The position numbers were made by a program. A stretch of DNA of 64,000 bases from a virus (lineage: Duplodnaviria > Heunggongvirae > Uroviricota > Caudoviricetes): the IMG/VR virus record IMGVR_UViG_2859805564_000001; one strand, written 5' to 3'. Positions 39,001 through 42,000 of this stretch are shown here, piece by piece. Numbering within the stretch: the first letter of the stretch is position 1; each line of letters opens with the position of its first letter.

Positions 39001-42000
39001 TATTATAACTGGAAAAGAACTCCTTATGATCGACCGATTTATACCACATCCACTGGTGCTACAGGAAATAAAATATATTCCTGTGAGCATTATTCCGGCG
39101 GTGCAACATGGGATATTCGAAAGCCGTATATAGATAAGGTCCTAGTTATTAATACATCAGTATATGATTAGTTGAAGCGAGTCTTTAATATTCATTTAAA
39201 ATGTCTAAAAAGATGTATTATTAAAAAGTTTAGCGTGTTATCTGAATACAGGATATCTTAAATGAAGAGTATAGCAACACTGGTTGTGTGTGCAATCTCC
39301 GGGATTGCCTGTGTAAATTTATCTGCACATGCAGCAGAAGGAAACCATACAATTTCTCTGGGGTATGCGCACTTTCAGTTTCCGGGACTGAAGGATTTTG
39401 TAAAGGATGCGACTGCTCATAACAGGGAGACTTTCAGTCATTTCGTCAACAGAAACTACTTTTCTTCATTGGGCGAATATACAGATGGTCGGGTCAGTGG
39501 ATATGAAGGCAAGGATAAAAATCCACAGGGCATTAATATCAGGTATCGCTACGAGATAACGGATGATTTTGGCGTTATCACCTCTTTTACATGGACGCGT
39601 TCTCTCACTAACTCACAGACATTTATTGATGTGCAGTCAGCCGATCATACCAGGAAGATTAAGAATCCGGCAGCTTCTGCCAGAACGGATATCAGGGCGA
39701 ATTACTGGAGTCTGTTAGCGGGGCCTTCATGGCGGGTTAATCAGTACATGAGCTTATATGCGATGGCAGGGATGGGCGTTGCTAAAGTTAGCGCTGACCT
39801 GAAAATTAAGGACAATATTAACAGTAGTGGCGGATTTTCTGAAAGCAACAGCACGAAAAAAAACTCCCTTGCGTGGGCTGCAGGTGCACAGTTTAACCTG
39901 AATGAGAGTGTTACACTGGATGTGGCTTACGAAGGTTCCGGCTCTGGCGACTGGCGCACGAGTGGAATTACTGCTGGCATTGGCCTGAAATTCTAACCTG
40001 TATCCGGTAACCGTTTACTACCCGCTGTGATGGCGGGTTTTTTATTGCCCGTACAGGGCAAAAACCGTAAATTATGCGTGGGTGCCTTTCGGCTGATGGC
40101 TGGAGGGTGAACCTGAAGGCCTGATGTGGAAAGGCCCCGAGTCAACTTAACGTTAACCCGAGGCCCTAACACTTCGTACCTTGACAAGTAGAAGGTTAGC
40201 GCCTCTCCACTCAGGAGGCAAGCGCTATGTCGCAAAAATCGCTTATCACCGTCACAATTTGTATGACGGTTATCTTCACTATCTGGATGTTGCACGGTTC
40301 GCTGTGTGAGTTCCGGCTGAATTTGTGGGGAGCGGAGTTTGCGGCGTTCTTACAGTGTAAGCAGTAGGAAAACCGCGACGGGGACGAAAGTCCCCGTCAA
40401 CTGGTTGCTGAGGTTCAGCCGATATGGCACCCGTTTCAGGTGAGAGAATGAACGATAAAATTCTCCGGTATATGCAGCGTGTGGTGAGAAATTCCCGCAA
40501 CCCTGAATTTATGAATGAAGTTAAAGACGCCTGCCTTAAAAAGCAGGCGTTTTGTTTTGAGGCACCTGATGGCTTTCTGGTGCTGCGTTCTGTGCTCAGT
40601 GCTGATGGTATCCCTTATGTTCTGGTGTTGCTGGGCGTGTGTACGGGGAGTAACAGCGTTGAGCGTTATCTGCCGGAGGTGAAGACATTAACCCGTCTGG
40701 CTGGCGGACGTTGGGCTGAATTTCATACGGCAAGGCGGGGATTTATCCGGCTGGGAAAACGTCTGGGCTTTGAGCGAATGCCGGATGATGAGGATGGCTT
40801 CATGGTGTTCAGGATAGCGGTCTGACTGCCACAGTTTTCATCATCGTGTTTAAACCAACATTGCAATTCACATTCTGACCCTGCTCCGGCAGGGTTTTTT
40901 TATTATCCAGGGGGGCCATAATGGGCGGAAAAAAAGGCGGTGGTGATACCAAAGTAAAACCAACAGCAGCGCAAATAGCACAGGAAGAAGTGGCCTGGAA
41001 AGGGTGGCAGGATTATCAAAAAATCCTCCGCCCGGCTGAAGATAACTTCATGGAAAAGGTCGATGACCTGAACAGTGAGCAGCAGTACGACAATATTGCT
41101 GGCACCACAAATCTGGGGTATCAGAAACAGTTTGGCGAAGCACGGAAGGAACTGGCGGGTAATCTTGCTCAGTCCGGTGTTGACCCGTCCAGTGGTCGCT
41201 TTAACGCGGTAATGAATGCGAACCAGAGTGATCAGGTAACCGGGCAGATTGACACAACCACACGGGGGCAGGTATCGCAGGCAGATAAGTATGTTGCCGG
41301 GCTACAGGATGTTGCAGCTCTCGGTTCAGGTCAGAAGGCGGATGCGTTACAGAGTTTTAACTCGCTGGCAGACAGCAGTCTGGCAAAAGCTAAATCGGAC
41401 GCACAGGCTGCGTTTACGAAACAGCAGGGGCGAGCCTCTCTTGTTGGCGCTGGTTTGGGTGCGGTAGGTGCATATGCGATGCATAAGGCTGGTGGTAGCG
41501 GAGGAAGTGGCGGTGCTAAAACACCGGGCACCGGCGCTAATGCCATTCAGCATCAGGCTCAGAACTGGAGACTGTGATTATGGAGTACGGTAAATACGAA
41601 ACACTTGCGAGATACGGTTATACCGGAGCTGCCCGTCCACAGGGTGACTGGCAGACGTCAGCAGCGCTGACACGCCAACAATACGACGACTGGCGAACCA
41701 GATATTTGCCCCGCGTGGCAAGGCTGGCTGACCTTGGCGAGAACAACAGCCTGATGAATGCACAGCTTGCCCGGGTGGGCGGCCTTGCCACTTCCAGTCT
41801 CCGTACAGCGCAGATGGCGCAGGATAACCAGATGGCGAGATACGGGGTAAGCCGCCCGGATAATCCCGACAGTAATACGCTGGGGTTACGTAATGCCCTG
41901 GCAATTGCTGGCGCGAAAAATGGTATCCGTGAAGCCGAACAGGATCGCCAGATGAACATACTGACGGGGGCTTCTGCACCGGCAAGACAGAAACTGAGTG

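Follow-up and report, generated by a model that had tools for sequence, protein, structure and literature searches.

Introduction

The only direct experiment on a hok locus of an Stx phage is that of Takada et al. (2021; PMC8621323) on hokW-mokW-sokW, a locus known from the 1999 annotation of Plunkett, and it found that hokW-sokW benefits the phage in lysis and release. The deletion constructed in that study covered only hokW-sokW. On a wider scale, the preprint of Escalera-Maurer et al. (bioRxiv 10.1101/2025.08.07.668861) sorts Hok proteins into 60%-identity clusters and reports that 42 of the 45 homologues assayed were toxic when the bare coding sequence was overexpressed behind a constant ribosome-binding site, and that hok genes are about four-fold enriched in prophages. 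Cluster 72 is one of high abundance; the preprint leaves Sok, Mok and the mRNA ends undefined and makes no mention of adjacency to lom. Our literature search found no paper dealing specifically with the lom-adjacent hok locus.

The locus described here lies in a window of 64,000 nucleotides, the whole stretch analysed, from the virus record IMGVR_UViG_2859805564_000001 (Caudoviricetes). Positions 40045-40432 very probably constitute a complete, self-contained type I toxin-antitoxin cassette of the hok/sok type, carried as a moron in a Stx-converting phage of the Sepvirinae. As a representative of an intensively studied toxin-antitoxin family the locus is unremarkable, its sole unusual feature being the apparent absence of mok.

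Results

The ORF downstream of lom belongs, by sequence, to the Hok/Gef family

A preliminary description of this DNA had proposed a 46-codon ORF preceded by an AGGAGG ribosome-binding site and encoding a Hok/Gef-type toxin. Both elements are present on the plus strand: the ORF occupies positions 40227..40367 and encodes the 46-aa peptide MSQKSLITVTICMTVIFTIWMLHGSLCEFRLNLWGAEFAAFLQCKQ, and the ribosome-binding site lies at 40213..40218, 8 nt before the ATG. The toxin assignment is also upheld, with profile, RNA-model, comparative and literature evidence in agreement. Over profile positions 6-42 of 42, the peptide matched Pfam HOK_GEF (PF01848) at 33.2 bits (E = 4e-8), where the gathering score is 22, and PHROG 251 was matched with an E-value of 2.8e-24. 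The peptide has a hydrophobic N-terminal stretch (residues 5-22), and it carries all seven positions given in the preprint as conserved in more than 80% of the Hok family (M1, C16, T18, L30, C31, E32 and E41 in R1 numbering), the aligned residues after M1 being C12, T14, L26, C27, E28 and E37 in its own numbering. The best-scoring NCBIfam model was the HokA equivalog NF007290, but the score of 38.4 bits is below the cut-off of 89; judged by these scores, the toxin is a relative of HokA and not HokA proper.

The length of the ORF is fixed at 45-46 codons in all homologues, down to about 75% DNA identity. Of the 12 informative pairs, 11 had dN/dS values between 0.18 and 0.46 and the remaining one had 0.71; a near-identical pair with no non-synonymous changes was left aside as uninformative. 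These data indicate that the 46-aa ORF is a member of the Hok/Gef family on which purifying selection is acting.

The toxin gene is already known and catalogued. Its description as unannotated holds for the ORF track used at first and for the records of 933W (AF125520), Sakai (NC_002695.2) and Ss-VASD (NC_028685), three widely used records from which this intact toxin gene is missing; it does not hold for the PGAP-annotated genomes in RefSeq, where a CDS with exactly these coordinates is named "Hok/Gef family protein" (WP_000078907.1), nor for several phage records in which the CDS is also annotated. The identical peptide is listed in the preprint as 72_1589, cloned as LRP157 for the overexpression toxicity assay. 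The text names the three non-toxic exceptions and 72_1589 is not one of them, from which we infer that the peptide was toxic in that assay.

Limits of the cassette and predicted promoters

The cassette, of about 375 bp (40045..40432), is located between lom and the next late gene and is sense-oriented in the late operon. It is divided from lom by the intrinsic terminator of that gene, a stem-loop followed by a T-run at positions 40020..40044 of the plus strand, recognised both by the terminator scan and in the sequence itself. Homology spans exactly positions 40060-40432 across P2-like, lambdoid, plasmid and chromosomal contexts, and the cassette is carried by about a third of complete E. coli genomes.

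A putative hok promoter is located at positions 40045..40073 of the plus strand, with a -35 hexamer TTGCCC (40045-50) and a -10 hexamer TAAATT (40068-73) separated by a 17-nt spacer. This arrangement follows the hokW layout, and the pattern TTGCC/TTGnnn-N17-TA.A.T is conserved among the homologues. A consensus promoter scan of both strands of the locus called no promoter at a threshold of 9/12; the hok promoter was missed because it matches the consensus at 8 of 12 positions. The proposed hok and sok promoters, each with about 8/12 matches, rest on conservation and on the analogy with hokW, and by these comparisons each strand of the cassette bears a conserved promoter-like element.

Predicted structure of the hok mRNA

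The full-length hok mRNA was modelled as a transcript of 353 nt on the plus strand (40080..40432), the ends of which were placed by conservation and pairing. In diverged copies, homology begins and stops at these same two positions, 40080 and 40432. The Rfam sok/hok-leader model RF01794 matched over its full length (1-157) at positions 40080-40238 with an E-value of 1.3e-6 and 37.9 bits, short of the gathering score of 59; this match was obtained only in E-value mode, and the search at the gathering threshold returned nothing at the hok locus.

The full-length mRNA folds with a z-score of -6.0, and the closure of the 5' end on the 3' end appears in both the MFE and the centroid structures. In this fold, the closing helix is formed by a tac-like 5' element (GGGUGCCUUUCGGCUGA, 40080..40096) and a complementary fbi-like 3' element (UCAGCCGAUAUGGCACCC, 40415..40432), both on the plus strand, as are all the mRNA elements that follow. 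The tac-like element may pair alternatively with a ucb-like internal partner (GAAAGGCCCC, 40129..40138), which is part of the RNAalifold consensus and is 97.6-99.2% paired; such an alternative 5' hairpin would form after 3' trimming. Comparison with the homologues and with hokW places an SD-like GAGGCC (40160..40165) at the canonical position of a mok ribosome-binding site, with no start codon after it, and a dcb-like element (GGUUAGCGCCUC, 40195..40205) is predicted to pair either with positions 40160-40170 or with the region of the hok ribosome-binding site. In the full-length fold, the hok ribosome-binding site is sequestered by a local hairpin.

The GC-rich hairpin noted earlier on the 3' side of the toxin ORF was confirmed as a stable 9-bp stem-loop at positions 40377..40398, 10 nt after the stop codon (GACGGGGAC-GAAA-GUCCCCGUC). 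It is 100% paired in the 51 unique sequences, with four compensatory pairs. By comparison with R1, this stem-loop probably marks the point at which 3' exonucleases stop, as a counterpart of the protective stem-loop on processed hok mRNA. Its function as a terminator on the plus strand was considered and rejected: no T-run follows it, and the scanner calls a terminator on the minus strand only. The transcript model continues past it to position 40432.

Over the 51 unique sequences, the named helices were 99.0% paired, in comparison with 35-44% in slid controls, with six compensated pairs. For the tac/fbi closing helix, the corresponding value was 97-100%, with two compensated pairs, and all 41 one-sided changes (41/41) gave standard pairs. 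A replacement of G-C by A-U was found in the closing helix of one homologue (L090), and two others (L032 and L074) carry uncompensated changes at the 5' end. Compensatory changes thus support, at the level of sequence comparison, both the 5'-3' closing helix and the 3' stem-loop. The helices of the truncated form predicted by RNAalifold (the tac stem and the SD/dcb pairing) were 97.9% paired in columns that are almost invariant, which makes covariation uninformative for them. The modelled probability of the hok ribosome-binding site being unpaired was close to 0 for the full-length mRNA, rose to 0.0-0.31 on truncation and was again close to 0 with the Sok target masked (12/13 homologues); in the window's own sequence, the modelled release is small (0.09).

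A predicted Sok-like antisense RNA

An antisense sok RNA had been expected within positions 40050..40230, and a search of that interval for a Sok-like promoter and fold-back structures recovered conserved promoter-like hexamers together with a hairpin. The predicted Sok-like antitoxin RNA is encoded on the minus strand at positions 40130..40186. With ends transferred from the annotated sokW of 933W, it would be about 57 nt long (from about 40186 to 40130) and would consist of an open 5' tail of about 19 nt, a 16-bp hairpin and a terminator tail of UUU only. Its fold has a z-score of -4.6, and in 13 homologues the hairpin is more stable on the antisense strand (-20 to -27 kcal/mol) than on the sense strand (-12 to -16 kcal/mol).

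The corresponding promoter is predicted at positions 40193..40221 of the minus strand on the basis of conservation and of the sokW hexamers, with a -35 TTGCCT (reverse complement of 40216-21), a 17-nt spacer and a -10 TAACCT (reverse complement of 40193-98). The -35 hexamer overlaps the hok ribosome-binding site. The promoter sequence AGGTTAGCGCCT is near-invariant: among the 51 aligned unique cassettes it is kept by 50 and altered in the decaying copy L074. The -10 hexamer is invariant in the 13 homologues. Altogether, the comparative data suggest that a conserved, Sok-like antisense hairpin RNA is part of the cassette.

No conserved mok frame overlaps the hok start

The preliminary description had also expected an overlapping mok frame upstream of the toxin gene, and this expectation was not borne out. 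Scanning for any ORF starting with ATG, GTG or TTG and overlapping the hok start, in 13 homologues and then in 52 unique cassettes, revealed no conserved mok. Half of the unique cassettes (26/52), that of Sp5 among them, have no overlapping upstream ORF at all; in the remaining ones the overlapping ORF begins at one of at least six unrelated starts, with indels shifting the frame between close relatives. The in-frame upstream extension of hok is interrupted by a stop codon in all 52 cassettes. No near-cognate start at ribosome-binding distance from the GAGG was seen by eye in the window or in the P2-type sequence. As a positive control, the same scan recovered mokW, mokB and mokC: hokW and hokB have an ATG 6-7 nt past GAGGC, about 57 nt upstream of hok, and in hokC the in-frame mokC ORF opens earlier, with a GTG at -90.

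A canonical hok/mok/sok locus, in which a Mok peptide would be translated from a weak or non-canonical start and Hok translation would be coupled to it as in plasmid R1, could be argued from the conservation of an SD-like GAGG where the mok ribosome-binding site canonically lies, from the presence of some overlapping upstream ORF in about half of the unique cassettes, and from the 42-codon overlapping frame of the window (TTG 40181..40309); the authors of the preprint also remark that Mok is hard to call. We regard this interpretation as improbable: the TTG at 40181 is 17 nt from the GAGG and has no ribosome-binding site of its own, and the scan that recovers the mok genes of the three control loci finds neither a shared start nor an open in-frame extension among these cassettes. 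Since no conserved mok was found, control of Hok translation probably acts directly on the hok ribosome-binding site, independently of mok.

Discussion

Proposed mechanism

By analogy with R1 hok/sok and with hokW-sokW of 933W, and with the promoters, RNA ends and 3' trimming of the cassette being those that we infer above, the system would operate as follows. The 353-nt mRNA would be made in a closed, untranslatable form, with its 5' and 3' ends paired and with GCGCCUC holding the hok ribosome-binding site shut in a hairpin. Slow 3' trimming to the stem-loop at 40377-98 would strip off the 3' partner, and the freed 5' end would refold onto positions 40129-38; GAGGCC (40160-65) could then capture GCGCCUC, and the hok ribosome-binding site would be loosened. 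The short-lived Sok-like RNA of about 57 nt would pair with positions 40130-40186 and silence this active form, probably via RNase III cleavage. The mok-less control would lie in the same pairing, as Sok bound to GAGGCC would displace GCGCCUC back onto the hok ribosome-binding site. Once the supply of Sok ended, the stable mRNA would yield Hok, resulting in damage to the inner membrane.

Biological role of the cassette

The least certain part of our interpretation is the role of the cassette, which would most likely be either an induction-triggered accessory in lysis or host killing, as reported for hokW-sokW, or a prophage-retention module. Its sense orientation within the late operon provides a context for a role linked to induction.

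A more specific proposal, put forward as a tentative possibility and not as the probable account, is that cluster 72 represents a naturally mok-less branch of hok with a three-way RNA switch at the hok ribosome-binding site, which in Stx phages would additionally serve as an induction-triggered killing or lysis accessory partly redundant with hokW-sokW. In the switch, GCGCCUC would pair by turns with the SD-like GAGGCC and with the hok ribosome-binding site, to which Sok would return it. At induction, read-through of the Q-antiterminated late operon would circumvent the 5'-3' lock and transcribe across the sok promoter; if this is true, the cassette would be a second induction-triggered accessory for host killing or lysis. 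Redundancy with the cassette could then explain why the phenotype of the Sp5 ΔhokW-sokW mutant was merely two-fold.

A different main function, lysogen defence by abortive infection or exclusion of other phages in place of the phage's own lysis or retention, is rather unlikely. Takada et al. (PMC8621323) cite a report that R1 hok/sok lowers the plating of T4, and both the prophage enrichment of hok genes described in the preprint and the filing of PHROG 251 under morons in PHROGs would fit it. On the other hand, a section heading of the same preprint denies any enrichment of hok in the neighbourhood of defence systems, and the experiment on hokW of an Stx phage (PMC8621323) pointed to a part in lysis and release that benefits the phage.

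The possibility that the cassette is a relic, that is, a selfish or decaying hok locus kept silent like several chromosomal hok loci of K-12 and contributing nothing to phage or host, was also considered. hokW, another hok locus of the same phage, is clearly decayed: a remnant of it, separate from the cassette, was found by a search with the hokW primers at positions 52080..52196 of the minus strand, and the Ss-VASD record labels the decayed hokW fragment as a Hok protein. In addition, some homologues of the cassette have damaged leaders (L074 and L030) or a mutated ribosome-binding site (L016). Against these signs of decay stand the purifying selection and fixed length of the toxin ORF, and the conservation of both promoters, the antisense hairpin and the closing helix, with compensatory changes, over 51 unique sequences from several unrelated contexts. 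The reported toxicity of the peptide and the presence of the cassette in about a third of complete E. coli genomes also argue against a relic, which we judge to be very unlikely.

Two hok loci are present in 933W and in Sp5, the latter having both hokW-sokW and the cassette; therefore, the single-locus deletion of hokW-sokW left in place a second Hok that is reportedly toxic. A widespread hok cluster that keeps the whole RNA architecture of the R1 type without mok would, moreover, offer a convenient natural system for asking whether hok regulation requires coupling to a leader peptide.

Comparison with known systems

Among the named Hok proteins, the closest to the toxin is HokA of E. coli K-12 (50 aa), with 46% identity and a common pattern, MxQK...FTxWMxxxSLCE...AAFLxCK, that includes the C-terminal Cys; in the preprint, HokA is placed in cluster 93 and not in 72. 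From 72_1589, the cluster 72 member of Escalera-Maurer et al., the toxin shows no difference at the protein level. The gene ckf (Z2054), the 'putative killer protein' of OI-57 used as an STEC risk marker, is likewise a prophage-borne Hok-family gene in EHEC. Its identity with the toxin gene was rejected, as the ckf PCR primer fits a C-terminus of the HokC/HokD type (…VFTAYE) and thus a different cluster.

With hok/mok/sok of plasmid R1, the cassette has in common the Pfam family, the tac/fbi closure and the 3' stem-loop, as well as, by prediction, the alternative 5' hairpin, the SD-like/dcb pairing and an antisense RNA in which an open 5' tail precedes a terminator hairpin. It differs from R1 in the peptide (28% identity; 46 vs 52 aa), in lacking mok, in being borne by a phage and not by a plasmid, and in scoring below the gathering threshold of the Rfam model.

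Identity of the cassette with hokW-sokW was likewise rejected, since the primers of the 2021 paper and the 933W annotation correspond to a different gene at another site. HokW is a protein of 51 aa (MKQQKAM…) with 33% identity to the toxin, encoded in the opposite orientation, and the hokW locus includes an in-frame mokW, with its start 7 nt past GAGGC, whereas the cassette has no mok. Both loci belong to the same phage group and share the same design: the promoter layout, the pairing of a 5' GGGUGC with a 3' GCACCC, a putative sok promoter of the form TTGCCT-N17-TAACC that overlaps the ribosome-binding site of hok, and complementarity of the Sok 3' end to AAAGCCCC.

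A hok-family toxin gene downstream of lom

The 46-codon ORF at 40227..40367 (+) is a Hok/Gef family member under purifying selection. Its AGGAGG ribosome-binding site (40213-40218, + strand, with the ATG 8 nt downstream) and the GC-rich hairpin just 3' of the stop codon, a 9-bp stem-loop at 40377-40398 (+), were present as given in the preliminary description. The proposed similarity to Hok/Gef toxins was borne out by a profile search, in which the 46-aa peptide (MSQKSLITVTICMTVIFTIWMLHGSLCEFRLNLWGAEFAAFLQCKQ) matched Pfam HOK_GEF with 33.2 bits (E = 4e-8; gathering score 22). 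In addition, PHROG 251 ("MokW-like host killing", moron category) matched the peptide with E = 2.8e-24, and all seven positions listed as conserved in >80% of Hok peptides in a recent family-wide survey were found in it. The top NCBIfam match was the HokA equivalog model, with a score (38 bits) so far under the cut-off of 89 that the peptide is not HokA itself; judged by its sequence it is a HokA relative, with pairwise identities of 46% to K-12 HokA, 33% to HokW and 28% to R1 Hok.

The upstream Ail/Lom-family gene lom (39262..39996; Pfam Ail_Lom, E = 6e-32) is followed by a clean intrinsic terminator in the terminator scan (40020-40044), and the cassette is therefore a separate transcription unit. 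The scanner also called a minus-strand intrinsic terminator at 40376-40399, which corresponds to the hok mRNA 3' stem-loop (tail CGGTTTTCCT) and could halt antisense transcription arriving from downstream.

The phage is a Stx-converting member of the Sepvirinae, and the window shares 99.7-100% identity with Shigella phage Ss-VASD and with the O104:H4-type phage P13771. The description of the toxin gene as unannotated holds for the original 933W record (sokW, mokW and hokW annotated elsewhere, lom-L0129 gap empty), for the Sakai RefSeq record (no CDS at the lom-adjacent site) and for the closest record, Ss-VASD RefSeq, where the gene is likewise missing. It does not hold for the field in general: in PGAP-annotated E. 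coli genomes, WP_000078907.1 "Hok/Gef family protein" is a CDS at exactly matching coordinates, and some phage records label the gene "small toxic polypeptide", "prophage host toxic membrane protein" or "MokW-like host killing". Table S2 of Escalera-Maurer et al. (bioRxiv 10.1101/2025.08.07.668861) also lists the identical peptide, as entry 72_1589, which was cloned for a toxicity assay as plasmid LRP157. According to the text of that preprint, as distinct from its figure, 42 of 45 assayed Hok homologues were toxic upon arabinose induction, and 72_1589 is absent from the three exceptions named, in line with the toxicity anticipated for the gene. Altogether, the initial observation is real and its core interpretation correct.

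Distinction from hokW-sokW

The lom-adjacent gene is not hokW. In the Sp5 hokW-sokW system, HokW is a different protein of 51 aa that begins MKQQKAM (Takada et al. 2021, PMC8621323), and in 933W hokW is encoded on the opposite strand, close to the right-hand end of the genome. Both loci are carried by Sp5 and 933W, the Sakai copy of the cassette being 96.9% identical to the window; in the 2021 study (PMC8621323), hokW-sokW alone was deleted. In the window, the hokW locus is reduced to a remnant at 52080..52196 (-) that lacks the entire leader (promoter, sokW, start of mokW) and has been altered by a frameshift of 1 nt and an internal deletion of 76 nt; thus, the lom-adjacent gene is the only intact hok in this phage. 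The Ss-VASD RefSeq record labels a 38-aa fragment of the decayed hokW 'Hok/Gef family protein', yet omits the intact gene. Between the cassette region and the remnant lies a single ORF of 2,806 aa (43594-52014, +; 8.4 kb), annotated in Ss-VASD as an LPD5 domain-containing protein.

Limits and distribution of the cassette

Diverged copies of the cassette (75-85% DNA identity) were found in 1,750 of 5,426 complete E. coli genomes, and also on some plasmids. They lie 3' of lom in Stx phages, 3' of ogr at the ends of P2-like prophages, in the interval between J and the tail-fibre gene of a lambdoid prophage, on an IncI1 plasmid and adjoining ykgM, and the homology block has the same limits in every context (window 40060-40432). 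In the homologue alignment, conservation starts with TTGCCC(40045-50)-N17-TAAATT(40068-73), continues with the near-invariant GGGTGCCTTTCGGCTG from 40080, seven bases downstream of TAAATT, and stops exactly at GGCACCC (40426-32). Such behaviour marks the cassette as a moron, mobile and self-contained.

The PGAP start of the downstream gene, ATG 40424, falls within the 3' (fbi) element of the cassette. Because the cassette ends at 40432 in every context, the likelier start is the alternative ATG 40448, which follows GGTGAGAG and is the one chosen in the P27 record; the encoded protein matches PHROG 610, listed as unknown function. Further 3', among hypothetical late genes, PGAP places a small 'bacteriocin' gene, WP_000540391.1 (~42036-42287, +).

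Predicted structure of the sense RNA

In practice, the Rfam sok model describes the sense-strand hok mRNA leader; it aligned end to end with 40080-40238 at 37.9 bits (E = 1.3e-6), under its gathering score of 59. Matches above gathering score elsewhere were sRNA-Xcc1, C4 antisense RNA, isrK and STnc100, at 4531-4614 (-), 5450-5537 (-), 5563-5638 (-) and 16511-16724 (+). The 40080-40433 RNA folded with an MFE of -152.7 kcal/mol (z = -6.0), and in both the MFE and centroid structures its first 17 nt paired with 40415-40432, the closure defined for R1 as tac/fbi.

Homologues conserve both this 5'-3' closure and the 3' stem-loop. Among 51 unique homologues, the named full-length helices were 99.0% paired, vs 35-44% when the partners were slid by 1-3 columns. 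The closing helix showed two pairs changed on both sides and 41 one-sided changes, all still standard pairs, with the path G-C to G·U to A-U exemplified by one homologue (L090), and the 3' stem-loop showed four compensatory pairs. Uncompensated 5'-end changes occurred in cassette L032 (four contigs; G3-to-A) and in the visibly decaying L074, whose leader is heavily mutated; in L030, the 5' ~45 nt are swapped for other sequence. All three keep an intact ORF and may be silenced or deregulated copies. RNAalifold gave the 5' end a second partner at 40129-40138, together with a GAGGCC/GCGCCUC helix; these correspond to the tac stem and the SD/dcb stem of R1, respectively. Both alternative helices were 98% paired in columns that barely vary, so that covariation is uninformative for them.

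A predicted Sok-like antisense RNA

The antisense sok expected upstream of hok has a candidate. In the 933W annotation, the sokW -35 (TTGCCT) overlaps the hok ribosome-binding site, the -10 is the reverse complement of AGGTTA, the RNA 5' end lies 7 nt past the -10, and its 3' end is complementary to AAAGCCCC. The cassette matches this layout on the minus strand, with a predicted -35 TTGCCT (reverse complement of 40216-21), a 17-nt spacer, a predicted -10 TAACCT (reverse complement of 40193-98) and AAAGGCCCC at 40130-38 as counterpart of the sokW 3'-end site. Together, these elements predict a minus-strand RNA of ~57 nt, from ~40186 to 40130, whose predicted fold is a 16-bp hairpin behind an open 5' tail (z = -4.6). 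Conservation covers both this antisense hairpin and the promoter motifs: 13/13 first-round homologues retain the hairpin, and the -10 is invariant in them. In these 13 homologues, hairpin stability was -20 to -27 kcal/mol on the antisense side vs -12 to -16 on the sense side, the pattern that selection for G·U pairs in the antisense RNA would produce. A generic promoter scanner called neither the hok nor the sok promoter. A Sok-like antisense RNA is a strong prediction, based on these motifs and on analogy with sokW.

Stx-phage cassettes with the identical peptide (L022, L025, L029 and L054 vs the window) carry two Sok-hairpin alleles at the positions aligned with 40140-40160, CAAC-TTAACG-TTAACC and CAAACATTTTGTTTAACC, which suggests intra-cassette recombination or diversifying antitoxin change.

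Absence of mok

The overlapping mok frame, also expected upstream, was not found as a conserved ORF in 52 unique cassettes. The sole candidate in the window, TTG 40181..40309, lacks a ribosome-binding site. No ATG/GTG/TTG ORF starting in the leader and reading into hok was present in 26 of the 52, the remaining cassettes use at least six unrelated starts, and an in-frame N-terminal extension, as in mokC and mokW, is stop-blocked in all 52. As a positive control, the identical scan recovered the annotated mok genes of hokW, hokB and hokC: for hokW and hokB, the start was an ATG ~57 nt upstream of hok, 6-7 nt past GAGGC, and for hokC, the in-frame mokC ORF was reported from an earlier GTG at -90. 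In the cassettes, GAGGCC is conserved and no start codon follows it. Mok is absent.

Proposed regulation and role for the phage

By analogy with R1 and hokW-sokW, the full-length hok RNA would be closed and untranslatable; 3' trimming back to the 40377-98 stem would take off the fbi element, and the RNA 5' end would then refold onto 40129-38. Sok would pair with 40130-40186 and lead to decay, and upon loss of Sok the stable mRNA would yield Hok and inner membrane damage. For a design without mok, we infer that GCGCCUC (40199-40205) may lock the hok ribosome-binding site in the closed form, that GAGGCC may capture it in the trimmed form, and that Sok bound to GAGGCC may send it back to the ribosome-binding site. 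Partition-function modelling supported the direction of this switch in 12/13 homologues, with probabilities of an unpaired ribosome-binding site of ~0 (full-length), 0.0-0.31 (truncated) and ~0 (Sok target masked); the modelled release was small, 0.09 for the window sequence.

The cassette lies, in sense orientation, within the long late operon, which begins at pR' and takes in stx, the lysis genes, the head and tail genes and lom. Given Q-mediated antitermination, late transcripts would be expected to pass the lom terminator and continue over the cassette. Speculatively, such read-through would give hok RNAs lacking the native 5' end and collide with sok transcription, a scenario that would agree with reports on hokW-sokW of induction-linked HokW production and faster lysis (PMC8621323). 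A role in prophage retention or abortive infection is equally possible; Hok genes are ~four-fold enriched in prophages according to the preprint bioRxiv 10.1101/2025.08.07.668861.

The RNA anatomy of the cluster, the absence of mok and the status of the cassette as a second hok locus in Sp5 and 933W appear to be undescribed, and are incremental within a well-known family. Since no mok is conserved in the 52 cassettes, a defining feature of the R1 paradigm is missing; although the cassette is not a three-gene hok/mok/sok locus, it resembles R1 hok/sok in most respects.
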